This document shows positions 8,457 through 59,144 of a stretch of DNA of 64,000 nt, in pieces. The stretch is from assembly GCA_035293405.1 (NCBI GenBank), contig DATDOE010000113.1, forward strand, positions 28,263-92,262, in the 5' to 3' direction. Position 1 is the first letter of the stretch; each line of letters opens with the position of its first letter. The notes beneath the pieces were generated by a model, which was not told the origin of the DNA, made no database searches, and saw nothing but the letters and a program-made list of their open reading frames with translations. The stretch is from Vicinamibacterales bacterium (lineage in GTDB: Bacteria > Acidobacteriota > Vicinamibacteria > Vicinamibacterales > UBA2999). Made by a program: the position numbers and the translations under genes.

Positions 8457-8523
8457 CGTAGGGGCCGGCTTCAGCCGGCCCGTCCACCGGTCCGCCTGAA
8501 GGCGCCTGAAGGCGGACCCTACG
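8457..8523. repeat. G+C-rich REP-like element bounded by CGTAGG/CCTACG
   Basis: cgtagg, then GGCCGGC-ttca-GCCGGCC, then GGTCCGCC-tgaaggcgcctgaa-GGCGGACC, then cctacg. Confidence 0.85.
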
Positions 8524-8580
8524 ACTCGCGTGAAGCCTGCTGGGCGCAGGGTGGGTCCTCTTCCATGGACCCGCCGGCGA

Positions 8581-20737: not shown

Positions 20738-21282
20738 GGGTAGGCGAACCCTTGGCGACTAACTCGAGAGTAATCCGATGGTGGGAACGTATCGGCCTCG
20801 CCGTCGATCGATTCCTCTGCGGCTCACCATCTTTTCATCAGCACTCACCTCGCGCCAATTACTTGAAAATGGCGCGGTTGCGGCGGTCCGATTAAATCGA
20901 TTTCCGTCGCAGGGACACCCTCAGGGAACAACAGCTGCTGCGGCCGCTGCTTCTGATTTAGAGACGCCTGCACACACAAGTCCGAGGCGCGAGGTCACAC
21001 CTTCTCAGCGAACGCCAACGATACCCTCTCACACCGAGTTCTTCGATCGAGTCGGCGTGATGGGTCGATCTGCGCAAGCGTCAGCTCCTCGCGGAGTTTA
21101 TCGCGCTACCGTTCAAAACTCGTCAGGTCGATGTCCTGCGCGTAGAGGAACAGTGACCTGTTCTGTCACGGAGCTGCGTTATTCTCTGTTCCTGAGTCGA
21201 TACATTGTCTTGGGGTGTCTCCCCAAGCCAATGCAATATCTTGTATCGAGGCGTCCAACCAGATTACCCTCAATCGATTTTC

Positions 21283-23406: not shown

Positions 23407-23440
23407 TGCTGTGAAGAAACCCAAGGGGATGAAGGCTGAG

Positions 23441-24340
23441 ATGACGGACCCGATCCCCAAGGCGATCAAAGCGAAGAGCATCGTCTCCAAAGAGGAATGG
23501 CGAGAGTACACAAAGACCGTCTGGCATATCGCGAATGTCTCAGACCCTGATCACCCAGCCGTGTTTCCGGTTGAGATTCCGCACAGACTGATCAAGCTTT
23601 TTAGCTTTTATGGTGAGGTGGTCTTGGACCCGTTTGCGGGCGTGGGTACCACAGCTCGCGCCGCCATTCCCCTCGGCAGGAGAGTGGTGTGCGTTGACCA
23701 GAATCCGCAGTACATCAGCGCAATCAAGACGCGGTGTGCCGCGTTGAGTAACGGAAGGCCAGCCTCGGAGCTTCTGACTGCGGTGAGAGGCGACAGCAGA
23801 TCATTGTCAGCTCTCGCAGACAATTCCGTCGGGTTGGTTGTAACAAGTCCCCCGTATTGGGACAAGGCAGACTACGGCGACAGTCACTCGAACCTCGGCA
23901 GCATCGGGAACTATTCAGATTTCCTGGGCATGACGAAGCGAGTGTTCGCCGAATGCCTGCGAGTGCTGAGTCCTGGCCGGAAACTCTGCATCGTCACCGC
24001 CAACGTGAACCAGCATACGGATCACGGCCTGCTCACTTTCCCTTTGGCCGCGGATTTTCTTCTGCAGGCCCGAGAACTTGGGTTCGTTCTGATCAACGAA
24101 ATCATTTGGTCGAAAGATGGGACAGGTGGGAAATGGGGATCGTGGGGTTCGCAGCGGCCGATTTTTGGAAGCTACCCCTATCCGCCGAACTTCTTGTTCA
24201 AGAACGTGCATGAGTACGTATTGATTTTAGCCAAGCCGCCACAGAAACGAATCTCTGGCAAGAAGGTTCGGTCCTATTCAGACCTAATGACCTCTGTGAT
24301 CCCGCCTGTTGCTGAAAGGCATCGACGGCGAATGCAGTGA
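23441..24340 (+). CDS. N4/N6 DNA methyltransferase (PF01555-like) with permuted motif order
   Basis: 'HPAVFPVEIPHRLIKLFSFYGEVVLDPFAGVGTTARAA' (motifs X and I) lies N-terminal to 'LVVTSPPYW' (motif IV) and 'IIWSK'. The ATG at 23441 has 'GAAGG' 5 nt upstream. Alternative starts are 23429 and 23369. Confidence 0.85.
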   Translation: MTDPIPKAIKAKSIVSKEEWREYTKTVWHIANVSDPDHPAVFPVEIPHRLIKLFSFYGEVVLDPFAGVGTTARAAIPLGRRVVCVDQNPQYISAIKTRCAALSNGRPASELLTAVRGDSRSLSALADNSVGLVVTSPPYWDKADYGDSHSNLGSIGNYSDFLGMTKRVFAECLRVLSPGRKLCIVTANVNQHTDHGLLTFPLAADFLLQARELGFVLINEIIWSKDGTGGKWGSWGSQRPIFGSYPYPPNFLFKNVHEYVLILAKPPQKRISGKKVRSYSDLMTSVIPPVAERHRRRMQ

Positions 24341-25416
24341 GCTTCCACGTCCAGCCTGACCGGGTCAGATTTTTCGAAGTACTGTCCGTTGGCCTCGAAC
24401 AGGGACCGTGGACCGACTTTGCGATCGCAGTGGCGTGGGCTAGGGAAAACGCGGTCGCCTCAATGACTCCTGTGTTGAGTCAATTCCTTCAGGCCGGGGG
24501 CCGGTTCAAGATTACGGTTGGAATCGAATTGCTGGGCACGTCCCGCGAAGCCCTTGAAAGCCTTCTTGCCTTGGAGAGGTATGGCTTTGCAGAAACATTC
24601 ATCTACCATAATGAAGCGCCCGAGGAAACGTTTCACCCCAAGATCTACCTGTTAAGTGGACGCGGTCGAGCGAGACTCATCGTTGGTTCCAGTAACCTCA
24701 CCGGCGGTGGGCTGGCGACCAACGTAGAAGCTGCACTCGAACTGGAGTCACCGGTCGATGGACCAGCCATCGTAGAGGCCGTTCGCTGCCTCGCAGGGCT
24801 GCGAGATTTGCAAGATCCGAGAGTCAAACGTTTGGACGCGGCCTTTCTCGCTGAACTCGTTGCATCTGGGTACGTGATCTCCGAGGCCGAGATCAGGACG
24901 CGCCGGGCAACGCAAACACGCGCACGGGCGGCAAACGCGCGACCGCGGAACAGACTATTCGGCACGGTTCGTCGTGCGCGTCTCCCAGGCGCGAGGCGGC
25001 CGCAAGTGCAAGTCGTCGAGGCTGCCGTCTTGCTACTGCGACCTCGCCGAGCATCAGCGACCGCGCGTAGAACGCAGGTGCAGGTTCCCATTCGACTGAC
25101 TCGCACACCGTTCTTCACGGGTGTCGCGTCGGTCGTCAGCGCACATGACAACCGTAGGCATGGGCTACGGCGGGCGCGGGCTCGCGGCGGCCTCAACACT
25201 GTGAAGCTCGAACTGCCGGAGACTGACGCAATCGAGAATTTCGTCCTGCGTCTCACGAAACGTGGCGATCGAGTGACCTACGAAGCGTTTTCGACAGACT
25301 CGGAACTGGGGCGGCCGATCGCTGACGCGCTCCAGGCCGGACTGGAAACAGATCCACCGACAACAACTGCCACGATTCCGAACCTCGACCGCGCGACCCT
25401 GTATCGATTCGTCTGA
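24337..25416 (+). CDS. PLD-family (HKD) nuclease, putative BfiI/NgoFVII-like restriction endonuclease
   Basis: A single HKD-type motif 'FHPKIYLLSGRGRARLIVGSSNLTGGG' in the N-terminal half, an Arg-rich linker and a separate C-terminal domain. The GTG start overlaps the methyltransferase stop as GTGA. Confidence 0.75.
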   Translation: MSFHVQPDRVRFFEVLSVGLEQGPWTDFAIAVAWARENAVASMTPVLSQFLQAGGRFKITVGIELLGTSREALESLLALERYGFAETFIYHNEAPEETFHPKIYLLSGRGRARLIVGSSNLTGGGLATNVEAALELESPVDGPAIVEAVRCLAGLRDLQDPRVKRLDAAFLAELVASGYVISEAEIRTRRATQTRARAANARPRNRLFGTVRRARLPGARRPQVQVVEAAVLLLRPRRASATARRTQVQVPIRLTRTPFFTGVASVVSAHDNRRHGLRRARARGGLNTVKLELPETDAIENFVLRLTKRGDRVTYEAFSTDSELGRPIADALQAGLETDPPTTTATIPNLDRATLYRFV

Positions 25417-28795: not shown

Positions 28796-28936
28796 ACTCC
28801 CAACTCCCAATCCCGCTTCGCGCGCGAGCCAACTCCCAAGAAAGACGCAAGAAGGACAATTGGGAATCGGGAATTGGGAGTTGGCCCGGGTTCGGGTTGG
28901 GAGTTGGGAGTTAGATGGGGTTGGGAGTTGGGAATT
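28795..28936. repeat. heptamer-array inverted repeat, GGGAGTT/GGGAATT flavour
   Basis: Left: aactccc aactccc aatcccg ... aactccc. The long right arm is gggaatc gggaatt gggagtt ... gggagtt gggagtt ... gggagtt gggaatt (28862-28936). Confidence 0.9.
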
Positions 28937-28939
28937 GAC

Positions 28940-29878: not shown

Positions 29879-30576
29879 TCGCGCTCGACGTCGACTCGGG
29901 CGCGCGGGCGCTGGAGCTGGCGACCGAGCTCCGCGGCATCGCCGGCGGGTTCAAGGTCGGCAGCCGGCTGTTCACGCTCGAAGGGCCGGCGCTCGTCAGA
30001 CGGCTCGTCGACGCGGGCGTCAGCGTCTTTCTGGATCTGAAGTATCACGACATCCCGAACACGGTGGCGCAGGCGGTGGACGCCGCCGTGAGCACCGGCG
30101 CCTGGATGGTCAACGTTCACGCATCGGGCGGCGTGCCGATGATGCAGGCCGCGGCGCGCGCGGGCGCCGAGGCCGCCGATCGATTGGGCCGGCCGCGGCC
30201 GATCGTGATCGCGGTAACCGTGCTGACGAGCATGGACGAACCCACGCTGAAGGATCTGGGTGTGCAGCGGCCGCTGCTCGATCAGGTCACGACACTCGCC
30301 CGAATGGCGCAGACCGCGGGACTTGACGGGGTTGTGGCGTCGCCGCAGGAAACCGCCGCAATCCGAGCGGCGTGCGGAGCTGACTTTGCGATCGTGACGC
30401 CCGGGATTCGCGGCGCATCCGCCGCCGCCGACAAGAATGACCAATCGCGGACGATGGGACCGGCTGAGGCCGTCCTGGCCGGCGCGACCTACATCGTCGT
30501 CGGCAGGCCGATTATCGCGGCCGCCAACCCGAAGGCGGCGGCCGCGTCGATTGCCGAGGAATTGGGGGCCGCCTGA
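29863..30576 (+). CDS. pyrF: orotidine 5'-phosphate decarboxylase
   Basis: GTG start. 'LLVALDV', 'VFLDLKYHDIPNTV', 'YIVVGRPI'. Overlaps pyrD by 16 nt. Confidence 0.92.
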   Translation: MGKLLVALDVDSGARALELATELRGIAGGFKVGSRLFTLEGPALVRRLVDAGVSVFLDLKYHDIPNTVAQAVDAAVSTGAWMVNVHASGGVPMMQAAARAGAEAADRLGRPRPIVIAVTVLTSMDEPTLKDLGVQRPLLDQVTTLARMAQTAGLDGVVASPQETAAIRAACGADFAIVTPGIRGASAAADKNDQSRTMGPAEAVLAGATYIVVGRPIIAAANPKAAAASIAEELGAA

Positions 30577-30590
30577 AGGCGGCCCCTACG
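30565..30590. repeat. REP-like hairpin (GGGGCCGCC-tgaa-GGCGGCCCC) + TACG
   Basis: 9-bp perfect stem. The pyrF stop codon TGA sits in the loop. Lies between convergent pyrF and pal. Confidence 0.85.
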
Positions 30591-30592
30591 TG

Positions 30593-35637: not shown

Positions 35638-37773
35638 CTAACGGGCGCGGAGCAGGCGCAGCGCATTCGCCACGACGATGACCGACGCGCCCGTATCGGC
35701 GAGGACAGCCATCCACAGCGTGGCCGAGCCGGTGATGGCCAGCACCAGAAACGCCGCCTTGAGCAGGAGTGAGACGACGACGTTCGTCTTGACGTTGCGG
35801 ACGGTGGCACGCGACAGGCGCAGCGCGTACGGGATCTTCAAGAGCTCGTCGGACATGAGCGCGACGTCGGCAGTCTCGAGCGCCGCGTCCGATCCGGCGG
35901 CGCCCATCGCCACGCCCACGTCGGCCGCCGCAAGCGCCGGCGCGTCGTTGACGCCGTCCCCGACCATCATCACGGCACCGTTCGGCCCACGCATCGCCAG
36001 GACGCGCGCGTGCTTCTGCTCCGGCAGCAACCCGGAATGGTGCTCGTCCAGAGAGAGCGCGGCCGCAACCGCACTCGCGCTCTCGGCGTGATCACCGGTG
36101 AGCATGGCGACATGCCGGACGCCGTGCGAACGCAGCAGCTCGATCGTTTCGGCCGCGGTCTCGCGAAGCGGATCGGCCACGGCGATTGCGCCGAGCAGCA
36201 CGCGATCGACAGCCACGAACACGAGCGAATGACCCGCGCGCCGAAGAGCGGCCCGATCGAGCTCCTGAGGAATCACGACACTGCGCGAGGCGAGAAGCGC
36301 CTCGTTGCCGATCACGACGGATCGACCATCCACGATCGCCTCGGCACCCATTCCCGGCGCCGAGATGAACGAGGTGACCGCCGGAATGTCGAGGCTCGCT
36401 CGACGGGCGTGGTCGGTGATCGCTCGGGCTATGGGATGCTCGGAGCGCGTCTCCGCGGCGGCGGCATAGCGCAGTACGTCCGCCGAAGACGCCGTGCCGA
36501 CGGGAATCACTTCGCTGACACGAGGCTCACCCCGCGTCAACGTTCCGGTCTTGTCGAACACCACCACACGCACCGCCGCCAGACGCTCCAGATGGGCGCC
36601 GCCTTTGATGAGCACACCGTTGCGGGCGGCGGCCGACAGCGCCGCCACGATGGACACCGGCGTCGAGATGACCAGCGCGCACGGGCACGAGATGACCAGC
36701 AGTACGAGGGACCGGTACAGCCAGGTCGGCACATCGCCACCGGCAACGAGCGGCGGGACGATGGCAACCAGTGCTGCCAATCCGATCACGGCCGGCGTGT
36801 AGATGCGCGCGAAGCGATCGACGAATGACTGCACCGGCGCACGTTTGGATTGTGCCGCCTCGACCAGGTGAATGATGCGCGCCAGGCGCGTGTCCGGGCC
36901 AATGCGCGACACCTGGAGCTCGAGTGCTCCCCGCCCGTTGATCGTGCCGGCGTAGACCTCGTCGCCAGGCTCTTTGTCGACGGGCAGCGATTCGCCGGTC
37001 ATCGGCGCTTCGTTCACGTCGCTGTGCCCAGCCACGATGCGCCCATCCAGCGGCACTTTGTCCCCTGGCCGGACGATGACGATGTCCCCCACGGCAATCG
37101 CCTCGACCGGCAACCGGACTTCCCGGCCGTCTCGCTTGACGATGGCATCACGAGGGGTGAGATCGACAAGCGCCCGAATCGCCTGTCGCGCACGCTCGAG
37201 GGTCCGCGCCTCGAGCCACTGCGCCAGCGCAAATAGAAAGACGACACTCGCGGCCTCGAGCCATTCGCCGAGGGCGAGGGCACCGGCGACGGCGATGACC
37301 ATCAGCACGTTGATGTCGACGGTCCCCGTCCGGAGGGCGGTAACCGCGCGGCGGGCGGGAAAGACGCCGCCGACGAGGGCACCGGCCACGAAGGACAGGG
37401 CCGCGGTCAGGGGGTGCGCGAGGGCACTGGAGACAAGACCCGCCGTCAGGGCGGCACCCGAGGCCACGGTCAGCCAGAGCCGGGCGCGCACGTCGGGGCC
37501 GGACGCGCGGGGTTCCTCATGCTCGAGCCACATGCGCATGCCGGTCTGCCCAACCGCGTCGACCATGGCGGCCGTGGTCAGCTTTGCCGCGTCATATTTC
37601 ACGTGCAGCCGCTGCCCGATGACGTCGGCGGCCACAGCTTCCATGCCGGTCAAAGGCTTCAACCGACGCTCCAGGATGACCACTTCCTCGTGGCAATCCA
37701 TGCCTTCCACGCGGAAGACGGCTTCCGCATGGAGCTCGCACGTCGGGCACGCGACCTTGGCTGGAGTGGCCAT
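35638..37773 (-). CDS. P1B-type heavy-metal (Zn/Cd/Pb-type) translocating ATPase
   Basis: N-terminal HMA-like 'FRVEGMDCHEEV', TM 'SCPCALV' (CPC), 'FDKTGTLT', 'MVGDGVNDAPAL'. Confidence 0.93.
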   Translation of the reverse strand: MATPAKVACPTCELHAEAVFRVEGMDCHEEVVILERRLKPLTGMEAVAADVIGQRLHVKYDAAKLTTAAMVDAVGQTGMRMWLEHEEPRASGPDVRARLWLTVASGAALTAGLVSSALAHPLTAALSFVAGALVGGVFPARRAVTALRTGTVDINVLMVIAVAGALALGEWLEAASVVFLFALAQWLEARTLERARQAIRALVDLTPRDAIVKRDGREVRLPVEAIAVGDIVIVRPGDKVPLDGRIVAGHSDVNEAPMTGESLPVDKEPGDEVYAGTINGRGALELQVSRIGPDTRLARIIHLVEAAQSKRAPVQSFVDRFARIYTPAVIGLAALVAIVPPLVAGGDVPTWLYRSLVLLVISCPCALVISTPVSIVAALSAAARNGVLIKGGAHLERLAAVRVVVFDKTGTLTRGEPRVSEVIPVGTASSADVLRYAAAAETRSEHPIARAITDHARRASLDIPAVTSFISAPGMGAEAIVDGRSVVIGNEALLASRSVVIPQELDRAALRRAGHSLVFVAVDRVLLGAIAVADPLRETAAETIELLRSHGVRHVAMLTGDHAESASAVAAALSLDEHHSGLLPEQKHARVLAMRGPNGAVMMVGDGVNDAPALAAADVGVAMGAAGSDAALETADVALMSDELLKIPYALRLSRATVRNVKTNVVVSLLLKAAFLVLAITGSATLWMAVLADTGASVIVVANALRLLRAR

Positions 37774-37783
37774 GACGGGCGGC

Positions 37784-38083
37784 TTACCGGCCGGCCTCCT
37801 GGACGTGCCTCAGGCCCTGGCGAAACAATGCCAGCACGTGCTTGTCGTCGAGGGCGTAGAAGATCATGCGCCCCTCTCGCCGGGCGCGGACGATGCGGGT
37901 GTTGCGCAGCAGGCGGAGTTGATGCGAAACCGCGGATTCGGTGACCGAGAGCTGACTCGCCAGATCACCGACACAGAGCTCGGACCGCGACAGGGCGTCG
38001 AGAATGCGGACGCGCGTCGGGTCACCGAGCACCCGGAAGATTTCGGTCAGGCCGTCGACGACGTGGGCGTCAAGTTGTGACAT
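37784..38083 (-). CDS. ArsR/SmtB-family metal-responsive repressor
   Basis: 99 aa. 'LGDPTRVRILDAL...ELCVGDLA...SAVSHQLRLLR'. Directly upstream of the ATPase. Confidence 0.9.
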   Translation of the reverse strand: MSQLDAHVVDGLTEIFRVLGDPTRVRILDALSRSELCVGDLASQLSVTESAVSHQLRLLRNTRIVRARREGRMIFYALDDKHVLALFRQGLRHVQEAGR

Positions 38084-42848: not shown

Positions 42849-42946
42849 TGCAAGATTCAAAATGCAAAATGCAAAACGTCAACGTGCAGGCGTCGCGTCG
42901 CCGCGATGGCATGCCGTGTTTGCATTTTGCATTTTGCATTTCGCAT
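42848..42946. repeat. heptamer-array inverted repeat, ATGCAAA flavour (4+4 units)
   Basis: Left: atgcaag attcaaa atgcaaa atgcaaa (42848-42875). Right: tttgcat x3, then ttcgcat (42919-42946). 43-nt G+C-rich spacer. Confidence 0.9.
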
Positions 42947-44403
42947 TACTGAGTTGCGCTAAGGGACCTCCGCGCGTTCCCTCTCCCTCGGCGCGCGGGC
43001 CTTCAGAAGCACGCGCGGATCCTGTCACGCAACTTCAGCGACACATCCTGAGCGCAACGCGAATGGCGGGCGTGACCCGCGCCGCGTGGGGCATCGTGGT
43101 GCAGTCGCTCGATCGGAACGAGCGGCTCTTCGAGTTGAATCCACGAACGCTGCTGGTGCCGGCGTCGTCGGCCAAGCTCGTGGGCGTGGCAACCGCGGCC
43201 GAGGCGGTCGGATGGGACTACCGCTACGTGACGACACTCCTGGCCGCGGGCCCGGTCACAGACGGTGTCCTTCATGGAGATCTCATTGCCGTCGGCTCTG
43301 GCGATCCGTCGATCGGTGGACGGGGCGGTGACGATCTCTCCAGTTGGGTTGAGGCGCTCAGGTCGGCGGGCATCCAGAGGATCGAGGGCCGCATCATCGG
43401 CGACGACGATGCGCTCGAGGAGCCACGACCGCAGCTCTCGTGGGCATGGGACGACCTGGGGTACACGACTGGGGTGCTGTTCGGGGCGCTGAACGTTGCC
43501 GAGAACCGCACGGTGGCTACGATTGCACCCGGCGCGTCCGAGGGCACGCCGGCGACACTCCTCGCGGAGGCGCGGGCGGCCTATCGCGGATTGACGAGTC
43601 GCGTGCTGACCGGCCCGCGAGGCTCGACGCAACTCCTGTGGCCGGAACAGCGGCCCGGCGAGCCGGCCCTCACACTGGCGGGCTCGATCCCGACTGGCGC
43701 CCCGCCGGCTCAGATCGATATCTCGGTCGGCAATCCCACACTCTGGTTTGCGAGCGTGTTGCGGGACCGGCTCGTCCGCGATGGCATCGTGGTCACGGGC
43801 GACGCCTTTGACATCGATGATGTCGCGCCAACACCGGATCGTGCGAGCGCGACGGTGCTCTTCACGCACCGCTCACGCCCGCTGTCGGAGATCGTGCGAG
43901 CCCTGCTCAAGGACAGCATCAACCTGTACGGCGAGGCTGTCATGCGGCTCAATGCCCCACGCGACACGCTCGCGACCAACGATGCCGCGCTCGAGGGCCT
44001 GGGGAAACGGCTGGAATCGTGGGGCATTCCAACCGACAGCATCCAACTCGTCGATGGGTCCGGCCTGTCCCGCCGCGATGCGATCTCTCCGGACGCGCTT
44101 CTGCTGGTGCTTCGGCGGATGCACGATCCCACCGGCAAGTCGCCTTTCATGACCGGCCTGCCGATCGCCGGCGTTGACGGTTCGCTCAGCGGGCGGATGA
44201 ACGGCACGCCCGCGGACGCCAACGTCCGCGCGAAAACCGGCACCATGTCCAATATCCGCTCCCTCGCCGGCTACGCGACAACACGCGACGGGGAGCGGCT
44301 GGCGTTCGTGATCATGGTGAACAATTTCGAGGGGACCGGGCCCAGCGCCAACACCGCAATCGATGCGATCGCCGTGCGCCTTGCCTCATTTAGTCGAGAG
44401 TAG
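42862..44403 (+). CDS. dacB: D-alanyl-D-alanine carboxypeptidase/endopeptidase (PBP4, S13)
   Basis: 'LVPASSAKL' (SxxK), 'DGSGLSR' (SxN-like), 'KTGTM' (KTG). The N-terminus is encoded by the heptamer repeat. An alternative GTG start is at 42916. Confidence 0.85.
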   Translation: MQNAKRQRAGVASPRWHAVFAFCILHFALLSCAKGPPRVPSPSARGPSEARADPVTQLQRHILSATRMAGVTRAAWGIVVQSLDRNERLFELNPRTLLVPASSAKLVGVATAAEAVGWDYRYVTTLLAAGPVTDGVLHGDLIAVGSGDPSIGGRGGDDLSSWVEALRSAGIQRIEGRIIGDDDALEEPRPQLSWAWDDLGYTTGVLFGALNVAENRTVATIAPGASEGTPATLLAEARAAYRGLTSRVLTGPRGSTQLLWPEQRPGEPALTLAGSIPTGAPPAQIDISVGNPTLWFASVLRDRLVRDGIVVTGDAFDIDDVAPTPDRASATVLFTHRSRPLSEIVRALLKDSINLYGEAVMRLNAPRDTLATNDAALEGLGKRLESWGIPTDSIQLVDGSGLSRRDAISPDALLLVLRRMHDPTGKSPFMTGLPIAGVDGSLSGRMNGTPADANVRAKTGTMSNIRSLAGYATTRDGERLAFVIMVNNFEGTGPSANTAIDAIAVRLASFSRE

Positions 44404-46213: not shown

Positions 46214-46908
46214 GGATGTCGCGCGGGATCGACGATGCCGACTTCGGCGAAGCCAGCCGCGCGCAGGACGCAGCTGTCGCAGCGGCCACATGCCGCTCCG
46301 CCGGGCCCTGGATCGTAGCAACTGTGTGTCAGGCCGTAGTCGAGACCGAGATCGATGCCGCGCTTGATGATGTCGGCCTTGGTCATCATCTGCAGCGGCG
46401 CGTGAATCCGAAACCGTTCGCCCTGCACGCCTCTAGCCGTCGCCAGTGAGGCCAGCTCCTCGAAGGCCCGAATGAACTCCGGCCGGCAGTCCGGGTATCC
46501 CGAGTAATCCAGCGCGTTCACGCCGATGACGATGTCGTGAGCGCCGAGCACCTCGGCCCAGCCGAGTGCCAGCGCCAGGAAGATGGTGTTTCTGGCAGGA
46601 ACGTACGTCGACGGGATCTCCGAGTCCCGAGTCCCGAGTCCCGAGTCCCGAGCCATGGGCCGGTCCTTCGGCACCGGCGCGTCCGTCGTCAGAGAAGAGC
46701 CGCCAAACGCCGACAGGTCGACGTCGAGCTCGATGTGCCGCGCGGTGCCCAGCCGCTTCGCAAGGACACGGGCGGCCTCGATTTCAGCCGCATGCCGTTG
46801 CCCATAGCGGATGGTCAGGGCGAAGAGACGGAATCCCTCCTCGCGCACGATGGCCGCGGCCGTGTAGGAATCGAGCCCTCCGCTCAATAGGACCACTGCG
46901 TCAGACAT
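46210..46908 (-). CDS. queC: 7-cyano-7-deazaguanine synthase
   Basis: PP-loop 'VLLSGGLDS', '[10 protein letters not shown]', and the Zn site '[21 protein letters not shown]'. Contains an in-frame heptamer array. Confidence 0.92.
46621..46648. repeat. four perfect tandem heptamers (CGAGTCC) inside queC coding sequence
   Basis: cgagtcc x4 followed by cgagcca. It is translated in frame as '[12 protein letters not shown]'. Confidence 0.9.
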
Positions 46909-47626: not shown

Positions 47627-47709
47627 CGGGATTCGGGATCCGGGACTCGGGATCCGGCGGATTCGGTCGTTCACATTTCGAATCCCGAATCCCGAATCCC
47701 GAGTCCCGG
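47627..47709. repeat. heptamer-array inverted repeat, CGGGATT flavour
   Basis: Left: cgggatt cgggatc cgggact cgggatc cggcggatt cgg. Right: cgaatcc x3, then cgagtcc (47679-47706). Loop of about 12 nt. Confidence 0.9.
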
Positions 47710-51426: not shown

Positions 51427-51644
51427 CGGTCACTCCGGATCCCGGTGCACCGTCTCCATCGAAAACGCCGGTAGACACACCGCGATGTATTCTGCGCCGC
51501 CCAGAGGCGTGCTGTAGCGCACCCATTCTCCAGCCGCGGTCAACTACTGCCTGACCGGCGACCTGCGTATTCCTCGATGCGCTTCGGAGGCGTACCCGCA
51601 GCCTGAACAATGGTCGGAGTTTGAATAAGTCGGGGCATTCTTCT

Positions 51645-51722
51645 GGTTCCTGGTTCGTGGTTCGTGGTTGAAAAGTCGGGAGTTGGGAGTTGGGAGTTGG
51701 CTCGGAGATCGAGTTGGGAGTT
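51645..51722. repeat. two adjacent heptamer arrays of different flavour (GGTTCGT then GGGAGTT)
   Basis: ggttcct ggttcgt ggttcgt ggttgaa, then gggagtt x3, ggctcggagatcga, gttgggagtt. Confidence 0.9.
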
Positions 51723-51724
51723 GA

Positions 51725-52108
51725 TCAGTGCACTCCAGCGCGACGCGGTGCCGCGACGATCGTGCCGGCCGCGTGGCCCCGTGACAGGTGCATCCGGCCC
51801 CAGCGCCACAACGACTCGAACACATTGCTGAGGGTGCGGCCGTACGGCGTGAGCTGATACCGCACGCCCAGGTGGGCTGGCGTCAGCTCCCGGCGGGCGA
51901 TCAAGTCATCCGCAATCATCTGACGAAGCTGCTCGCGCAGGACTTTCGTCGTCACGCTCGGCATGGCGCGGCGCAGGTCACCAAAACCGTGCGGGCGGCT
52001 CGCGAGGCGCTGATAGATCATCGGCTTCCATCGCCCGTCGATGACCGCGATTGCGGTGTACAGCGGGCACCCGGCGCGCTCGTCGTAGCTGTCTCGTGGC
52101 TTGCGCAT
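51725..52108 (-). CDS. HxlR-family winged-helix transcriptional regulator
   Basis: The ATG at 52108. 'CPLYTAIAVIDGRWKPMIYQRL' and 'FGDLRRAMPSVTTKVLREQLRQM'. Divergent from a VOC gene. Confidence 0.85.
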   Translation of the reverse strand: MRKPRDSYDERAGCPLYTAIAVIDGRWKPMIYQRLASRPHGFGDLRRAMPSVTTKVLREQLRQMIADDLIARRELTPAHLGVRYQLTPYGRTLSNVFESLWRWGRMHLSRGHAAGTIVAAPRRAGVH

Positions 52109-52183
52109 GATCTGACCCTCGGCGGGCAGGGTACTTCGAAGTGCCGTCTTGCCGGCGCCATGGCGGCCGACTACAGTGCGGCA

Positions 52184-52564
52184 ATGGCTCAATTGTTTCG
52201 AGTGATTCTACCGGTCGGCAACATCGAGCGCGCCAGGGACTTCTACGGCGCCCTGCTCGAGGCAAAGGGAGTGCAGGTGTCGCCGGGACGCCACTATTTC
52301 GGGTGCGGAGGCGTCATCCTCGCCTGCTTCGATCCGCGTGCCGATGGCGACCCGTGGGACGCCAAGCCCAATCCGGGCCACGTCTACTTCGCGGTGCCCG
52401 ATCTCGAAGGCGCGCTGCGGCGCGCCGAGACCGCTGGAGCAGAGATTTCGAAGCCCATCGAAACTCAACCCTGGGGCGAGCGCAGCTTCTACTGCGCCGA
52501 TCCGTTCGGCAACAAGATCTGTTTCGTCGACGACAAGACGCTCTTCACGGCCGGACTGATTTAG
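52184..52564 (+). CDS. VOC/glyoxalase-family protein
   Basis: 'FRVILPVGNIERARDFY...HVYFAVPDLE...PWGERSFYCADPFGNKICF'. An alternative ATG is at 52160. Confidence 0.8.
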   Translation: MAQLFRVILPVGNIERARDFYGALLEAKGVQVSPGRHYFGCGGVILACFDPRADGDPWDAKPNPGHVYFAVPDLEGALRRAETAGAEISKPIETQPWGERSFYCADPFGNKICFVDDKTLFTAGLI

Positions 52565-52570
52565 GCTCTC

Positions 52571-52673
52571 GGCTTTGGGCCTTGGGGAGTTGGCGAAGCC
52601 GCGCCGAAGCGCGCTGGACTCATGCGCGAAGGCGGGGGAGTTGGCTAGGAGATCTGGTTGGGAGTTGGGAGTT
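52571..52673. repeat. heptamer arrays, GGGAGTT flavour, flanking a G+C-rich hairpin
   Basis: 'ggctttg ggccttg gggagtt ggcgaag', then GCGCGC-cgaa-GCGCGC, then 'gggagttggctaggagatctggttgggagttgggagtt'. About 30 nt are shared with 51692-51722. Confidence 0.85.
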
Positions 52674-53618
52674 TCAGGCGATGGGCGTGAGCGGGGGCTC
52701 GCCCGACAGTACGGCCACGACGTTCTGCACCGCGAGTTGAATCATCGTTGTTCGCGTCTCGATCGCGGAGCTGCCGAGATGCGGCGAGAGCACGACGTTC
52801 TCCAGCGAGAGCAAACCCTTCTGAATCTCCGGCTCACGTTCGTACACGTCGAGCGCGGCGCCGGCGAGGATGCGGTTCTCGAGCGCCCAGACGAGGGCGG
52901 CCTCGTCGACGATTGGACCGCGGGCGGCGCTGATCAAATACGCGCTCCGCTTCATCCTCATGAGCGTCGTCTGGTTGATGAGATGTTTCGTCTCGGGTGT
53001 CAGCGGACAGTGGAGTGACACGACGTCCGATGTCGACAGCAGCCGATCGAGCGGCATGAACTCGCCGGCGACACCCGATTGCGCGCTGCGCCCGGTATAG
53101 GCCAGCCGCATCCCGAAGGCTGGCGCCCGAGCCGCGACGGCCTTGCCGATCCGCCCAAGCCCGACGATCCCGAGCTGCTTGCCGCGGAGATCGCTCCCCA
53201 GCATGAAGTCGAGGGTAAATCCCTTCCACTGACCTCGGCGCACGAGGCGATCGCCCTCGACGATGCGACGCGTGATGCCCAGGATCAGCGCCCACGTGAG
53301 GTCGGCCGTCGACTCTGTCAACACGTCCGGCGTGTTGGTGACGACGACTCCGCGCTCGCGAGCCGCGGGAACGTCGATGTTGTTGTAGCCAACGGCGATC
53401 GTGGAGATCACCCTGAGATCGGTCCCGGCGTCGAGGACGGCACGATCAATCGCGTCGGTGACCACGGACACGAGCCCCTGTTTTCCCACGATGCGTTTCA
53501 ACAGCTCGTCATGCGGGAGATCGCCGCGATCGTAGAGCTCGACGTCGCAGGCAGCCTCGAGGCGAGTGAGCGCGGACGAAGGGATTCGGCGGGTGACCAG
53601 GACTAGGGGTTTAGACAC
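52674..53618 (-). CDS. D-isomer-specific 2-hydroxyacid dehydrogenase (glyoxylate/hydroxypyruvate reductase-like)
   Basis: GTG start. NAD fold 'LGIVGLGRIGKAVA', with catalytic-region signatures 'ISAARG' and 'SPHLGS'. Confidence 0.88.
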   Translation of the reverse strand: MSKPLVLVTRRIPSSALTRLEAACDVELYDRGDLPHDELLKRIVGKQGLVSVVTDAIDRAVLDAGTDLRVISTIAVGYNNIDVPAARERGVVVTNTPDVLTESTADLTWALILGITRRIVEGDRLVRRGQWKGFTLDFMLGSDLRGKQLGIVGLGRIGKAVAARAPAFGMRLAYTGRSAQSGVAGEFMPLDRLLSTSDVVSLHCPLTPETKHLINQTTLMRMKRSAYLISAARGPIVDEAALVWALENRILAGAALDVYEREPEIQKGLLSLENVVLSPHLGSSAIETRTTMIQLAVQNVVAVLSGEPPLTPIA

Positions 53619-53622
53619 ACCA

Positions 53623-53657
53623 ACTTTCTACTTTACACTTCGCACTTTGCACTTGTT
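53623..53657. repeat. five tandem heptamers (ACTTNNN), single arm
   Basis: actttct actttac acttcgc actttgc acttgtt. Fills the gap between the small Cys protein gene and the dehydrogenase gene. Confidence 0.85.
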
Positions 53658-53879
53658 CTAGTGTCCAAGCGATTTGCAGTATCCGCAGTGATTGCACGTC
53701 ACGGCGGGCTCGATGATGCACAGGCCCTCGCCCTCGGCGCCAGCGGGCACTGAGAACGTCGAGTGGCTCGCATGCATGCGCGCGGACGCGACGGGGGTCG
53801 TGGAGGGCTCGCTGAACCGCCCCGCGCCCTGCCGGGCGATGACATCTCGCACGAGCGCGCGCAGTTCCTGTTCCGTCAT
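53658..53879 (-). CDS. small BMC-associated protein: N-terminal amphipathic helix + C-terminal 4-Cys motif
   Basis: 73 aa. 'MTEQELRALVRDVIARQ' is followed by a linker and 'CIIEPAVTCNHCGYCKSLGH'. ATGA overlap with the upstream BMC-P gene. Confidence 0.55.
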   Translation of the reverse strand: MTEQELRALVRDVIARQGAGRFSEPSTTPVASARMHASHSTFSVPAGAEGEGLCIIEPAVTCNHCGYCKSLGH

Positions 53880-54148
53880 TCGACTGTGTCCACCTGATCG
53901 ACGATGCCGATGATGGCGGCATCCACCGGCGCCGCTTTCCGCCCGAGCGCCTCGCCGGCGGCGCGGCCTTCGATGACGACCAGCACCTTCTCGTCGATTC
54001 CGGCGCCGACGGAGTCAACTGCCAGCAGCACGGTGCCCCTCGGGGCGTCGTCCAGGCCGATCGGCTGGACGAGCAGCAGCTTCGCGCCTTCGAACTTGGC
54101 GTGCTTCTGTGTCGAGACGACGGTGCCGACAACGCGTGCGAGTTGCAT
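53876..54148 (-). CDS. BMC-P (EutN/CcmL pentamer) shell vertex protein, paralogue 3
   Basis: 'MQLARVVGTVVSTQKHAKFEGAKLLLVQP...AVDSVGAG...VDAAIIGIVD'. Confidence 0.9.
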   Translation of the reverse strand: MQLARVVGTVVSTQKHAKFEGAKLLLVQPIGLDDAPRGTVLLAVDSVGAGIDEKVLVVIEGRAAGEALGRKAAPVDAAIIGIVDQVDTVE

Positions 54149-54156
54149 GGTCCTCT

Positions 54157-54205
54157 GGGCCGCCTAAAGGCGGCCCCTACGTGACGACTGAAGGCGGCTC
54201 CTACG
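54157..54205. repeat. REP-like hairpin + half copy inside BMC operon
   Basis: GGGCCGCC-taaa-GGCGGCCC ctacg, then tgaaggcggctcctacg. Confidence 0.85.
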
Positions 54206-54467
54206 CGACATCGATCTCGTCGACGATGCCGACGATGCCGGCGTCGGTTGGCACTTCCGTCGGGTAGAACGGAAACGAGGCTTCCTTGCCGCGCACGAAA
54301 AACACCGTTTCACCCACACCCGCTCCAACCGCGTCGACGGCGACCAGCGTTCGGCCGACGGCGCGGCCGTCAGGCGCCAGCGGCTGCAGCACCATCAGCT
54401 TGAGGCCGTGCAGATTGTCGTCCTTGATGGTGACGACGACGTCGCCGATGACCCTGGCCAGTTGCAC
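54201..54467 (-). CDS. BMC-P (EutN/CcmL) shell vertex protein, paralogue 2
   Basis: The GTG at 54467 gives 'VQLARVIGDVVVTIKDDNLHGLKLMVLQP...AVDAVGAG...DAGIVGIVD'. Confidence 0.85.
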   Translation of the reverse strand: MQLARVIGDVVVTIKDDNLHGLKLMVLQPLAPDGRAVGRTLVAVDAVGAGVGETVFFVRGKEASFPFYPTEVPTDAGIVGIVDEIDVA

Positions 54468-54471
54468 GAGA

Positions 54472-54747
54472 TCAGTCGCCCGCGGCGACCTCCACGTGGT
54501 CGACGATCCCGACAATGGCGGCATCGACCGGACAATCTTTCAGACCCGACGCCATGCGCGCCGAGCTGCCACTCACAATCAACACGGTCTCGCCAACGCC
54601 GGCGTCGACGGTGTCGATGGCCACGAGATAGTTGCCTTCGGCCTTGCCGTGGGGATCCATGGGGCGGGCGACGAGCAGCTTGCTGCTGACCAGACGCGGG
54701 TCCTTCCGCGTAGCGACAACCGTCCCGACGATGCGGGCCAGGATCAT
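54472..54747 (-). CDS. BMC-P (EutN/CcmL) shell vertex protein, paralogue 1
   Basis: 'MILARIVGTVVATRKDPRLVSSKLLVARP...AIDTVDAG...VDAAIVGIVD'. Confidence 0.9.
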   Translation of the reverse strand: MILARIVGTVVATRKDPRLVSSKLLVARPMDPHGKAEGNYLVAIDTVDAGVGETVLIVSGSSARMASGLKDCPVDAAIVGIVDHVEVAAGD

Positions 54748-54762
54748 GCGGGGTACGACAGG

Positions 54763-55059
54763 TTATGCCTTTATGCCGGCGGTAGACTTGCCAATCGGGA
54801 GCGCGTCCTCGAGGTTGGCATGAGGCCGTGGGATGACGTGCACGGACACCAGCTCGCCCACGCGGCGAGCCGCCGCCGCGCCAGCATCAGTGGCGGCCTT
54901 GACCGCGGCCACGTCGCCACGGACGATCGCCGTCACGTACCCGGCGCCGATCTTCTCCCAGCCGACCAGCGTGACCTTCGCGGCTTTGACCATGGCGTCG
55001 GCCGCTTCGATCATCGCGACCAGGCCCTTGGTCTCCACCATTCCGAGCGCCTCTCCCAT
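54763..55059 (-). CDS. BMC-H (PduA/CcmK-type hexamer) shell protein
   Basis: '[54 protein letters not shown]'. Confidence 0.92.
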
Positions 55060-55078
55060 TCGCTGTCTCCACTAACAC

Positions 55079-55151
55079 GGCGGGTCCACAAACCAGGACC
55101 CGCCCTACGTAACTTGCGTTCGTAGGCCGGGTCTTGTTCTTCAGACCCGGC
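55079..55151. repeat. pair of REP-like hairpins inside BMC operon
   Basis: GGCGGGTCC-acaaacca-GGACCCGCC ctacg ... cgtag GCCGGGTCT-tgttcttc-AGACCCGGC. These are the same two hairpin types as 35540-35626, in swapped order. Confidence 0.85.
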
Positions 55152-55157
55152 GGGTCC

Positions 55158-56018
55158 TCAATCCCGAAGGTTCTTCACGGCGTCGGTGATGAGCGCCGTG
55201 AGCTCGCCGTATGTTAGCCGAATTTCCCCGTCTCTGCTCGCCTGTCGCAGCGCACTCGAGACGTCGGGCACCAGCCGCGCGGTGCTCGACTCCGGCGCTT
55301 CGAGCACCTGGCACAGCACCTGATCGTCGGACGCCGGATCAGAGGGATCGGCACAGAGCGGCGCCGGCGACGCGATGCCGTACATGCCGCGAAGCCCCTG
55401 CAATCGCCCCACTTCCTCACGCGAAATCAGGTTCTCGCCTCCGAGCAGCCGGGCCACGAGACTGATTTTGGCGAAGTGCTCGATCGTTTCCATCTTGTAG
55501 TACGCCGACATGACCGTTCGGCAGCAGGTCACCGCGCCATGGTTGGCGAGCAGCAGACCGTCATGCGCCTTGATGTACTTGCGGACGGCGGCGGGCAGTT
55601 CGGCCGTGGACGGCGTGCCGTATTCCGCGATCGGGATGCTGCCGAGCGTGGTGACAACCTCGGCGAGCACGGCTCTCGTGAGCGGAATCCCGGCCACCGC
55701 GAACCCGGTGGCGTTCGGCGGATGCGCATGGACGACGGCGTTGACGTCCGGCCGATTGCTGTAGATCTCGAGGTGCATCGGCAGTTCGGAGGACGGATCC
55801 CGATCGCCCGACACCTTCTTCCCCTGGTAGTCCACGACGACCATCATGTCGGGCGTCATGAACCCCTTGGACACGCTCTTCGGCGTGGTCAGGATCCGCG
55901 TGTCGTCGAGCCGCGCGCTGATGTTGCCGTCATTGGAGGCGACGAACCCGCGCGCGTACATGCGCCGCCCGGCTTCGACGATCTCGGCACGCGTCTGCTC
56001 TTCGAGGCGTGTGCTCAT
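55158..56018 (-). CDS. class II (FucA/RhaD-type) aldolase with ~70-aa C-terminal extension
   Basis: The ATG at 56018 gives 'MSTRLEEQ'. 'SNDGNISAR' and 'VHAHPPNATGFA' (Zn His). The extension ends 'EIRLTYGELTALITDAVKNLRD'. Confidence 0.88.
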   Translation of the reverse strand: MSTRLEEQTRAEIVEAGRRMYARGFVASNDGNISARLDDTRILTTPKSVSKGFMTPDMMVVVDYQGKKVSGDRDPSSELPMHLEIYSNRPDVNAVVHAHPPNATGFAVAGIPLTRAVLAEVVTTLGSIPIAEYGTPSTAELPAAVRKYIKAHDGLLLANHGAVTCCRTVMSAYYKMETIEHFAKISLVARLLGGENLISREEVGRLQGLRGMYGIASPAPLCADPSDPASDDQVLCQVLEAPESSTARLVPDVSSALRQASRDGEIRLTYGELTALITDAVKNLRD

Positions 56019-56269
56019 CAACGGTTCTTTCGAAACTGATCCCGGCACCGATCCGAACAGAAATAGTGGGTAACGCTGCCGGCGCGCAGTCCGAGGGATT
56101 CGTGCGGGGACACCCAGGTGCCACAGACCGGATCGCGCACGAGCTTCACGGCCGCTTTCGACCGCTTGCTCGGCAGCCCGCCAAACGATTCGATGATCCC
56201 GTCAACGAGTCGCCAGAACGCCCATGCGACCATGAGCAGCAGCAGCGCAATGAGGACGAGCCGTGTCAC
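56018..56269 (-). CDS. membrane-anchored YHS/TRASH-domain protein
   Basis: GTG start overlapping the upstream stop (GTGA). TM 'LVLIALLLLMVAWAFW'. 'DPVCGTWVSPHE...HYFCSDRCRDQF'. Confidence 0.7.
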   Translation of the reverse strand: MTRLVLIALLLLMVAWAFWRLVDGIIESFGGLPSKRSKAAVKLVRDPVCGTWVSPHESLGLRAGSVTHYFCSDRCRDQFRKNR

Positions 56270-56889
56270 TGATTGCTCGTCGCGGCGCCACCACCGGCGT
56301 GAGCCGCCGCGATCCCTTCAAGCGCGCGTCGCGCCGCCTGGCCTTCGGGACTGTCAGGCGCGAGCGTCACCACCTTCTCCCACTCAGCCGCGGCGGCACG
56401 CAGGTCCTGCTTCCCGAAGGCGAGGACGATCCCTTTGTTCAGCAGCGTCTTCGTGTGATTCGGGCTGATCGCCAGCGAGTGCTCGAACTGCTTGAGCGCC
56501 TCGTCGGCTTTGTTGCTGTAGTACAGGCTCACCCCAAGATCGGTACTGGCGTCGGCGTTCTTCGGGTCGATCTGAACCGCCCGCGTGTACCACTGAATCG
56601 CGTCATCCCACTGCTCGGCATCGAAGTAGGTGTTGCCGAGCTGAATGACGGCGTCGAGGTTCTTCGGGTCGCTCTTGAGGATCGTCGTCAGCGCCTGCAC
56701 GCGGCCCTGGTCGAGCGCGGGCGCCTGTCGTGCGGTGTTACCGGCACCGGCGGCCTGTCCGTCGGTCGCAGCGGCCTGCGCAGCGGGTGCCGGGGCCTGG
56801 CGGCGAGCCTGCTGGGTGCCGATCACCCAGCCCAGGATCACGCCGAAACACATACCGGCGATGACGTACGCGATGGAGTCTGATTTCAT
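56266..56889 (-). CDS. membrane-anchored TPR-repeat protein
   Basis: N-terminal TM 'IAYVIAGMCFGVILGWVIG', an Ala/Gln-rich linker, and 3-4 TPR units ('LGNTYFDAEQWDDAIQWYTRAVQIDPKN'). Confidence 0.75.
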   Translation of the reverse strand: MKSDSIAYVIAGMCFGVILGWVIGTQQARRQAPAPAAQAAATDGQAAGAGNTARQAPALDQGRVQALTTILKSDPKNLDAVIQLGNTYFDAEQWDDAIQWYTRAVQIDPKNADASTDLGVSLYYSNKADEALKQFEHSLAISPNHTKTLLNKGIVLAFGKQDLRAAAAEWEKVVTLAPDSPEGQAARRALEGIAAAHAGGGAATSNQ

Positions 56890-57657: not shown

Positions 57658-57783
57658 ATTCAAAATGCAAAATGCAAAATGCAAACATCACGTCGTCGGC
57701 AGCAACGAGGCACAAGCGGATCGCTTGTCACACAAATGCTGCGAATGACTTTCTGTTTGAATTTTGAATTTTGCATTTTGAAT
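57658..57783. repeat. heptamer-array inverted repeat, ATGCAAA flavour (4+4 units)
   Basis: Left: attcaaa, then atgcaaa x3 (57658-57685). Right: tttgaat tttgaat tttgcat tttgaat (57756-57783). The 70-nt spacer holds its own hairpin, ACAAGCG-gat-CGCTTGT. Confidence 0.9.
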
Positions 57784-59144
57784 TACCCCATGGTCTCTTT
57801 GACCGCGTCGATAATCTCCTGGCCCCATCGTCGAATCTCGCCTTCGTCCTGGCCTTCGAGCATCACCCGGAGCAGAGGCTCGGTGCCGGAGTAGCGAACC
57901 AGCAGTCGTCCGCTCCCCGCCAGCCGCGCCTCGACCGATGACATCACGGCGGCGACTCTGGGGATGGTCTGGAGATCGACCTTCTGCGGCACGCGCAGGT
58001 TCATCAGTACCTGCGGGTAGGTCGTGAGGTCCGACGCCAGGTCGGCGAGCTCGCGGCCGGTCGCAGCCATGGTCCTCAGGACGTTCAGAGAGGTGGCCAG
58101 ACCGTCGCCGGTGAACAGGTAGTCCGAGAAGATGATGTGTCCCGATTGCTCGCCGCCGAGCGAGAGATCGCGGCGCATCATTTCTTCCATCACGTACTTG
58201 TCGCCGACGGACGTACGAAGCATTGCGATACCGGCCTTGTGCAGCGCGAGCTCCAGGCCGATGTTGCTCATGACCGTGGCCACGATGGCGTTGCCCTTCA
58301 GTCGTCCCTCGGCCTTCATGCGCAAGGCGCACATGAGCATCACGGCATCGCCGTCCACGACCGCGCCGTTCGCGTCGATGAAGATCGCGCGATCGCCATC
58401 TCCGTCGAACGCCACGCCGAGCGGGTACCGACCCTCGACGACAACTTTCGAGAGCAGCGTGGGATCGGTCGAGCCACAGCCCAGGTTGATGTTCCGGCCG
58501 TCCGGCTGACTCCCGATGTGATGCACGTCGAACCCGAGATCCTGGAACAGTCGCGGCGCCACCGTGGTGGTGGCGCCGTTGGCGCAGTCCACGGCGATGC
58601 GCATGCTGGCGGTCCGTGCGCCCTGGGGCAGGATCTCGCGCAAGTGTCCGATGTACTCGGACCGCAGATCGACTTGCTCGACCGCATCCGCGTCGCCGGC
58701 GGCAACGCTCCACGACCCGTCAGCGACGATCGCTTCGACACGCTGCTCGAGGGTTTCGGTGAACTTTTCGCCGGCGCCCGAGAACACTTTGATGCCGTTG
58801 TCCTCGAACGGATTGTGTGACGCCGAGAGGACCACGCCAGCCGTATAGCCCATGCGCGGTGTGAGGTAGGCGACGGCGGGCGTCGGAATGATCCCGGCGC
58901 TCGTGAGCGTTCCGCCCTGGCTCCGGATTCCAACGGCCAACTCGCGCTCGATCCACGTGCCGGACTCGCGCGTGTCACGGCCGGCCAGAAGCCTGATGAC
59001 GGGACGTGCACCGTCTCCTGAAGGCACCTCGTCATGCCGCAGCACGCGCACGAGCGCGGCGCCAAGCCGCCGGATGGTTGGAACATCCAGCGGAGGGTCT
59101 CCCGCCCTGCCGCGCACTCCGTCCGTGCCGAACAACCGCGCCAT
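57783..59144 (-). CDS. glmM: phosphoglucosamine mutase
   Basis: 'LFGTDGVRG', 'GVVLSASHNPFEDNGIK', 'AFDGDGDR', 'GGEQSGH'. Confidence 0.95.
   Translation of the reverse strand: MARLFGTDGVRGRAGDPPLDVPTIRRLGAALVRVLRHDEVPSGDGARPVIRLLAGRDTRESGTWIERELAVGIRSQGGTLTSAGIIPTPAVAYLTPRMGYTAGVVLSASHNPFEDNGIKVFSGAGEKFTETLEQRVEAIVADGSWSVAAGDADAVEQVDLRSEYIGHLREILPQGARTASMRIAVDCANGATTTVAPRLFQDLGFDVHHIGSQPDGRNINLGCGSTDPTLLSKVVVEGRYPLGVAFDGDGDRAIFIDANGAVVDGDAVMLMCALRMKAEGRLKGNAIVATVMSNIGLELALHKAGIAMLRTSVGDKYVMEEMMRRDLSLGGEQSGHIIFSDYLFTGDGLATSLNVLRTMAATGRELADLASDLTTYPQVLMNLRVPQKVDLQTIPRVAAVMSSVEARLAGSGRLLVRYSGTEPLLRVMLEGQDEGEIRRWGQEIIDAVKETMG

Follow-up and report, generated by a model that had tools for sequence, protein, structure and literature searches.

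In bacterial microcompartments (BMCs), BMC-H proteins tile the facets of the shell, BMC-P proteins cap its vertices, and amphipathic terminal helices recruit the cargo. Here, we analyze a BMC locus on the minus strand of contig DATDOE010000113.1 (GenBank assembly GCA_035293405.1) from a Vicinamibacterales bacterium; it occupies positions 52674-56889 of the 64,000-nucleotide stretch that was studied as a whole (the window). The host belongs to the Vicinamibacteria, which we take to be subdivision 6 of the Acidobacteria. The locus is of a known kind and does not represent a new system; it is very probably the main locus of a metabolosome of the ACI type, which was already catalogued in 2021.

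In that catalogue (Sutter et al. 2021, Nat Commun 12:3809, PMC8217296), the ACI type comprises 125 loci, found in Acidobacteria only and mainly in subdivisions 4 and 6, and is always the sole BMC locus type of its genome. Its main locus encodes a PF00596 aldolase whose C-terminus bears an encapsulation peptide, a hydroxyacid dehydrogenase (PF00389/PF02826), a BMC-P triplet, one or more BMC-H proteins and several proteins without known homologues (PMC8217296). A protein of ~80 amino acids (aa) combines an N-terminal encapsulation peptide with three conserved cysteines, a further protein of unknown domain has three conserved histidines, and metal binding is regarded as possibly important for the type (PMC8217296). 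The aldehyde dehydrogenase (AldDh) lies outside the main locus, in most genomes on a satellite locus, i.e., one that is distal from the main locus of the same genome and encodes shell proteins with or without a few enzymes; this AldDh has an encapsulation peptide near its C-terminus, followed by a domain of ~50 aa (PMC8217296). The ACI aldolase is described as "quite distinct" and as closest to those of the HO and MIC3 types, and the ACI AldDh as closest to that of MIC3 (PMC8217296).

Two other described systems bear comparison. As far as the account of Erbilgin et al. (2014) relayed in PMC8217296 goes, loci of the Planctomycetes-Verrucomicrobia (PVM) type, which are linked to fucose and rhamnose and occur in Planctomycetes and Verrucomicrobia, encode AldDh, phosphotransacylase, acetate kinase and lactaldehyde reductase beside the shell genes. 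In the type I HO system, the aldolase and two BMC-P genes form a separate locus (PMC8217296, Supplementary Data 2).

Gene content and match to the ACI type

Genes were called by third-position GC, and all genes, followed by the gaps between them, were scanned against Pfam. Together with the list of open reading frames (ORFs), this confirmed nine co-directional minus-strand genes across 52674-56889, and an independent annotation of a JGI metagenome contig (C687J26631_10000232 of 3300002124), which shares 18.8 kb with the window at 100% identity, has the same nine. The nine-gene composition and the gene positions given in a preliminary description of this DNA were thus all recovered. The features of the locus, in order of transcription, are as follows.

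56266..56889, minus strand: TPR protein, 207 aa, with an N-terminal transmembrane helix (TPR Pfam families, E down to 3e-16)
56018..56269, minus strand: predicted metal-binding protein of the TRASH/YHS type, 83 aa, membrane-anchored (sub-threshold match to Pfam YHS and conserved Cys pattern)
55158..56018, minus strand: class II (FucA-like) aldolase, 286 aa, consisting of a catalytic domain, a Cys-containing linker and a putative C-terminal encapsulation peptide (PF00596, E 6e-51)
55161..55226, minus strand: putative C-terminal encapsulation peptide of the aldolase, EIRLTYGELTALITDAVKNLRD (near-invariant terminal segment in 70 orthologues)
55060..55157, minus strand: hairpin-rich spacer of 98 nucleotides (nt) at the aldolase/BMC-H junction (RNA fold of -54.3 kcal/mol, z -4.6)
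54763..55059, minus strand: BMC-H hexamer shell protein, 98 aa (PF00936, E 3e-30)
54472..54747, minus strand: BMC-P pentamer paralogue 1, 91 aa (PF03319, EutN/CcmL, E 7e-32)
54201..54467, minus strand: BMC-P pentamer paralogue 2, 88 aa when started at GTG 54467 (PF03319, E 3e-26)
54149..54200, minus strand: two tandem hairpins resembling repetitive extragenic palindromic (REP) elements, at the BMC-P2/BMC-P3 junction (repeat family D5 and fold)
53876..54148, minus strand: BMC-P pentamer paralogue 3, 90 aa (PF03319, E 3e-29)
53658..53879, minus strand: Cys protein of 73 aa, in which a putative encapsulation peptide at the N-terminus (residues 2-19) is followed by a variable linker and, C-terminally, by a Cys4/His motif (conservation and AlphaFold)
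52674..53618, minus strand: D-2-hydroxyacid dehydrogenase of the glyoxylate/hydroxypyruvate reductase group, 314 aa (PF02826, E 1e-56; PF00389, E 1e-30)

Overlapping start and stop codons, which had been reported for several junctions, were seen at three of them: the TPR and TRASH genes overlap by 4 nt (GTGA), the TRASH and aldolase genes by 1 nt (TGATG), and the genes for BMC-P3 and the 73-aa protein again by 4 nt (ATGA). Two start codons were reassigned by comparison with homologues. Since nearly all homologues of the aldolase are 286 aa long, its predicted start is almost certainly M11 of the ORF (window position 56018); likewise, BMC-P2 most likely starts at GTG 54467, because its orthologues mostly measure 88 to 89 aa.

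For comparison, GTDB species representatives were scanned with the motif of the Cys protein, which yielded 261 genomes; the comparisons reported here use the best 80 of these 261, with the related loci labelled by tblastn with the window proteins. Almost all of these 80 are metagenome-assembled genomes (MAGs) of Vicinamibacterales or other Acidobacteriota, some of them labelled gp6, and the nearest species representatives are 75-79% identical to the window in DNA.

With one BMC-H and three BMC-P proteins, the locus, as judged from its shell gene sequences, encodes a complete minimal shell set. The BMC-H protein contains K25, RGD, the pore segment KIGAGY and PRPH at residues 77-80, and is 91-99% identical across 77 species. 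The three BMC-P paralogues are 44-51% identical to each other, and each of their orthogroups, found in 74-78 species, shows 58-97% identity across species, from which it follows that the triplication is old. A tblastn search with the shell genes, together with Pfam, found no further BMC or EutN sequence in the window, and the Pfam scans of genes and gaps bore out the reported lack of a BMC-T gene there.

The aldolase is the signature enzyme of the locus. Its PF00596 match spans residues 22-196 of the 296-aa ORF, which leaves ~90 aa at the C-terminus outside it; among solved structures, L-fuculose-phosphate aldolases come closest (PDB 4c24, E 4e-23), and the metal-binding and catalytic positions (SSE...HAH...NHG) align with theirs. 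Unlike FucA (PDB 4c24, 1fua), the protein has an additional C-terminal region of ~90 aa, made up of a Cys-containing linker and the putative encapsulation peptide. The final 22 residues (EIRLTYxELxALIxDAVxxL) are near-invariant among 70 orthologues, the segment that precedes them is rich in indels and poorly conserved, and AlphaFold places a helix at residues 270-285, albeit at low pLDDT. A variable linker followed by a conserved and predicted amphipathic C-terminal helix is the usual layout of an encapsulation peptide. Across species, the aldolase is 65-92% identical, and its homologues number in the thousands at 85-98% identity, the named ones, at 85-90%, being from Vicinamibacterales. As a separate observation, the linker contains two cysteines, C222 and C236 (window about 55311-55355), that do not vary among 44 close homologues (at least 84% identical) and are kept in about 98% or more of the 70 orthologues at species level; a disulfide between them is conceivable, as is a metal site shared with the 73-aa protein.

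This 73-aa protein is the second candidate for encapsulation. Its N-terminus (MTEQELRALVRDxIAR) is modelled by AlphaFold as a helix (residues 3-19, pLDDT ~91), and its C-terminal part displays the motif SH...C-x7-C-x2-C-x2-C...GH, in which the four cysteines C54, C62, C65 and C68 as well as H39 and H73 are invariant. The locus is therefore predicted to encode two cargo proteins with helices of the encapsulation type. A calculation of hydrophobic moments did not pick out these peptides. The 73-aa protein matches no Pfam or NCBIfam family. An exhaustive HMMER search yielded a family of 217 clusters at 50% identity, the best 150 of which all consist of proteins of 49-183 aa; a profile search of a 5.8-billion sequence set returned only hypothetical proteins of ~73 aa, and one against the PDB returned the structural-zinc lobe of alcohol dehydrogenase at a non-significant E value of 0.16. 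The idea that the ~50-aa tail of the satellite AldDh might be homologous to the 73-aa protein was dropped, as no fusion to an AldDh was found among the best 150 of the 217 clusters.

Upstream of the aldolase gene, the 83-aa protein matches Pfam YHS with an E value of 2e-4, which is under the gathering score, and has no NCBIfam match. It has an N-terminal transmembrane helix and a TRASH pattern, C49-x21-C71-x3-C75, and its DPxCG and FCSxxC segments are conserved across 77 orthologues. Its position is kept in all related loci, and in each of the 77 related loci that extend so far, the TPR gene is found directly upstream of the BMC genes, so that membrane-anchored TPR and TRASH proteins are invariably linked upstream of the BMC genes in Vicinamibacterales.

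The hydroxyacid dehydrogenase is the least constant member of the locus. Among solved structures, it comes closest to glyoxylate reductases (6bii, 2cuk and 2dbq, E 1e-80 to 5e-84), and it scores 334 bits against the NCBIfam glyoxylate reductase model, under the cut-off of 455. The protein has no terminal extension and hence no encapsulation peptide, and about 8 of the 80 species have no gene for it at the locus: in six of these loci (L028, L040, L047, L061, L071 and L072), nth directly follows the Cys protein gene, and the dehydrogenase gene is likewise missing from L029 and L051. Both observations weaken the suggestion, made in the preliminary description, that aldolase and dehydrogenase together form a core that handles a reactive aldehyde.

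Taken together, the locus shares with the ACI type a host from Acidobacteria subdivision 6, a PF00596 aldolase with an encapsulation peptide, a PF00389/PF02826 dehydrogenase, an adjacent BMC-P triplet, a BMC-H protein with standard motifs, a small protein that combines an encapsulation peptide with cysteines, and a main locus without AldDh. It departs from the catalogue's description in the small protein, which has four invariant cysteines here and three there. The hunch that large catalogues might list an Acidobacteria-specific type of this kind was correct, and that type is ACI (PMC8217296, main text and Supplementary Data 2). A resemblance to the PVM type, which had also been pointed out, holds in so far as both have a class II aldolase as signature enzyme, several BMC-P paralogues (here a triplet) and a presumed short hydroxy-aldehyde that is confined by the shell. 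Unlike PVM loci, however, the window contains none of AldDh, phosphotransacylase, acetate kinase and lactaldehyde reductase, and the host is an acidobacterium. Compared by description, the HO and MIC3 types, both uncharacterized, differ in being found in other phyla and, for HO, in having BMC-T proteins and more shell paralogues.

Core enzymes and conservation of the locus among relatives

Scans of genes and gaps against Pfam found no PF00171 aldehyde dehydrogenase, no PF06130 phosphotransacylase and no acetate kinase in the 64 kb. The preliminary description had called these enzymes missing for more than 10 kb on either side; their absence holds throughout the window, but the stated distance does not quite hold on the high-coordinate side, where the DNA beyond the TPR gene amounts to 7.1 kb of the window plus 2.56 kb of the identical contig (encoding TilS, an ArgZ-like protein and a 221-aa ORF), i.e., about 9.7 kb. 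Neither did any of the 80 relatives have an AldDh of the BMC type within 10 kb on either side of the locus. The sole PF00171 protein found near these loci is an ordinary enzyme of 484 aa that lacks an extension and is encoded 6 kb from the locus in L049; L083 has a homologue that was not scanned. Because the ACI AldDh is reported to be consistently encoded apart, on a satellite locus, the lack of it here follows the rule for the type and is no sign of reduction, which speaks against the minimal or reduced organelle that had been envisaged.

The gene order TPR-TRASH-aldolase-BMC-H-P1-P2-P3-Cys73 is constant in the 80 loci, barring contig ends and L049, in which BMC-P2 had no match. The flanks are constant as well, with ftsH-folP-cdaA-ybbR-glmM-pdxJ on one side and nth-PPIase-DUF72-queE-queC on the other; given these housekeeping neighbors, the locus is part of the vertically inherited core genome of Vicinamibacterales. 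Small ORFs found downstream in relatives are lineage specific and absent from the window.

Two side observations concern these relatives. First, the titles of the MAGs L070 and L072 read "uncultured Bifidobacterium" and "Bifidobacteriaceae"; both have the acidobacterial locus and the neighbors that usually go with it, and are most likely mislabelled or contaminated bins. Second, two Vicinamibacteria MAGs have two genes of the phosphoglucomutase/phosphomannomutase family between the genes for the Cys protein and the dehydrogenase (L037, 10369-13120; L048, 10323-13160), and a third has a transketolase-like gene (L084, 10225-12765); these insertions hint at a sugar-phosphate substrate.

Possible function and alternative explanations

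As a whole, an ACI main locus that works along the following lines is the explanation we consider likely; the specific chemistry, which was read from predicted protein families, is tentative. The aldolase and the 73-aa protein, both tagged with a peptide, would be packed into the shell. There, the aldolase might act on a ketose phosphate (fuculose-, rhamnulose- or pentulose-1-phosphate or the like), splitting it into dihydroxyacetone phosphate and a short 2-hydroxy-aldehyde (lactaldehyde or glycolaldehyde), which the shell would confine. On the basis of the catalogue (PMC8217296), an AldDh bearing an encapsulation peptide and encoded on a distant satellite locus would then oxidize this aldehyde. 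The dehydrogenase, which lacks a targeting peptide and which some relatives do without, most likely resides outside the shell, where it may act on the resulting hydroxy- or oxo-acid or serve as a sink for the nicotinamide cofactor. The Cys4 mini-protein, finally, probably binds a metal, as Zn(Cys)4 or Fe-S, and may be a lumenal scaffold or redox partner.

Several observations weigh against this explanation. The aldolase falls under every NCBIfam equivalog cut-off, so that aldol cleavage of a fuculose-like substrate is not established; its best partial match is to 3-oxo-tetronate-4-phosphate decarboxylase (OtnC; 133 bits versus a cut-off of 250), with FucA scoring slightly lower (114 bits versus a cut-off of 264). 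The AlphaFold model of the C-terminal half of the aldolase is of low confidence, its alignment being shallow, and the 73-aa protein outside its helix, including the Cys domain, is modelled at a pLDDT of ~50. For the present genome, the AldDh step rests on the catalogue, no such gene being found within the 64-kb window. In addition, the ACI protein with three histidines was not identified here, the 83-aa protein having just one well-conserved His. Last, no later functional or experimental study of the ACI type was found in the full-text literature searched. This also bears on the preliminary description, which had held that a match to an already characterized type with defined function would speak against its reading: a catalogued type was indeed matched, but it is one without experimentally defined function.

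Most metabolosomes are accessory catabolic modules that are traded horizontally. Since 80 species have the locus at the same place, between pdxJ and nth, with BMC-H proteins that are 91-99% identical, one could go further and see the ACI compartment of Vicinamibacterales as a vertically inherited organelle of the core genome, with the TPR and TRASH proteins as membrane-anchored partners and the Cys4 protein as an encapsulated metalloprotein, whose chemistry would be something other than fucose or rhamnose degradation (e.g., a glycolaldehyde/glyoxylate or tetronate-phosphate route) and which would possibly be free of AldDh in some lineages. In this full form, we consider the idea unlikely.

A related but improbable alternative is that of a self-contained organelle independent of AldDh, in which an enzyme of the aldolase superfamily and the Cys4 mini-protein, possibly with the hydroxyacid dehydrogenase, make up the whole pathway; the aldolase-fold enzyme would then be a decarboxylase of the 3-oxo-tetronate-4-phosphate type or act on glycolaldehyde/glyoxylate intermediates, without a CoA-acylating step. 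The absence of AldDh, phosphotransacylase and acetate kinase from the 64 kb and from the 10 kb on either side of the locus in the 80 relatives would fit such a pathway, as would OtnC rather than FucA as the best partial match of the aldolase, the assignment of the dehydrogenase to the glyoxylate/hydroxypyruvate reductase group, and the wording of the catalogue, which speaks of "most" genomes, rather than of every one, as having the satellite AldDh (PMC8217296). On the other hand, this alternative conflicts with what the catalogue states about AldDh (PMC8217296), the OtnC score is far under its cut-off, and the dehydrogenase has neither a targeting peptide nor a place in every related locus.

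That the compartment mainly serves to sequester or deliver metal, with the aldolase in a secondary role, is very improbable. While the conserved TRASH motif, the invariant Cys4 and His residues, the conserved C222 and C236 of the aldolase linker, the weak similarity of the Cys motif to a structural-zinc lobe and the catalogue's own remark on metal binding (PMC8217296) all point in that direction, this evidence is at the level of motifs, class II aldolases need a metal anyway, BMC shells have no known role in metal storage, and the aldolase is the best-conserved cargo and the bearer of the canonical peptide. Finally, it is extremely improbable that this is a satellite or fragmentary locus that supplies extra shell proteins to a main BMC locus elsewhere with the real enzyme core, as the preliminary description had also considered in view of the missing BMC-T and core metabolosome enzymes, since the locus combines a complete minimal shell with two peptide-tagged cargo proteins, the signature aldolase among them, has a position that is fixed in the core genome of 80 species, and consists of the gene set that the catalogue labels the main ACI locus, always the sole locus type of its genome (PMC8217296).

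Intergenic elements, surroundings and significance

Two junctions within the ACI locus contain hairpin-forming sequences. The 98-nt spacer between the aldolase and BMC-H genes (55060-55157) folds into three or four strong hairpins; as the same junction measures merely 3-6 nt in the relatives L002 and L004, the spacer represents a lineage-specific insertion. The REP-like element, GGGCCGCC-TNAA-GGCGGCCC-CTACGTG, recurs in the window: besides the tandem copies at 54149-54207, further ones occupy other intergenic sites, at 8499-8525 and 30566-30592. We speculate that REP-like hairpins might tune the relative expression of the shell genes. No Rfam family was matched in the window, and a scan of the window for promoters and terminators found no enrichment over shuffled sequences.

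Apart from these elements, the window has intergenic arrays of 7-nt tandem repeats (families D1, D2, D6 and D10), with the units TTTTGAA/TTTTGCA, GGGAGTT and CGAATCC/CGAGTCC, at 1151-1242, 42855-42947 and 57658-57784; 28866-28938, 51682-51724 and 52633-52675; and 46621-46664 and 47668-47708. One GGGAGTT array lies immediately past the stop codon of the hydroxyacid dehydrogenase gene. Beyond it, the stretch between the dehydrogenase and M28 peptidase genes (51540-52564) differs from species to species: in the window, it is occupied by a glyoxalase/VOC gene (52178-52564, plus strand) and an HxlR regulator gene (51725-52192, minus strand); several relatives have a 120-aa cupin in this place, and the ORF at 51540-51809 still shows a vestige of the cupin N-terminus.

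The housekeeping genes of the window include hemB/hemL, dxr, rseP, cdsA, uppS, pyr genes, queC/E, nth, pdxJ, glmM, cdaA, folP and ftsH. About 15 kb from the locus, at 35638-38083, a heavy-metal P-type ATPase (711 aa) and a regulator of the ArsR family are encoded. Adjoining pyrR, a low-GC island (21205-25416, plus strand; GC 0.57-0.61 versus ~0.65 elsewhere) has co-directional genes for an Eco57I/N6-type methylase (733 aa), an N6/N4 DNA methylase (323 aa) and a PLD-like nuclease-type protein (359 aa). It probably represents a restriction-modification cassette that arrived by horizontal transfer.

Acidobacteria of subdivision 6 belong to the most abundant bacteria in soil, and among the BMC types that have no known substrate, the ACI organelle is one of the larger. 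Three points are sharpened by the comparison made here: the ACI main locus is a fixed part of the core genome of Vicinamibacterales, the hydroxyacid dehydrogenase is dispensable within the locus, and the membrane-anchored TPR and TRASH proteins and the Cys4 mini-protein are its constant companions. That the small protein has four rather than three invariant cysteines is a modest addition to the description of the type. For experiments on relatives in culture, for instance Luteitalea or Vicinamibacter, the sharpened points could serve as a guide.

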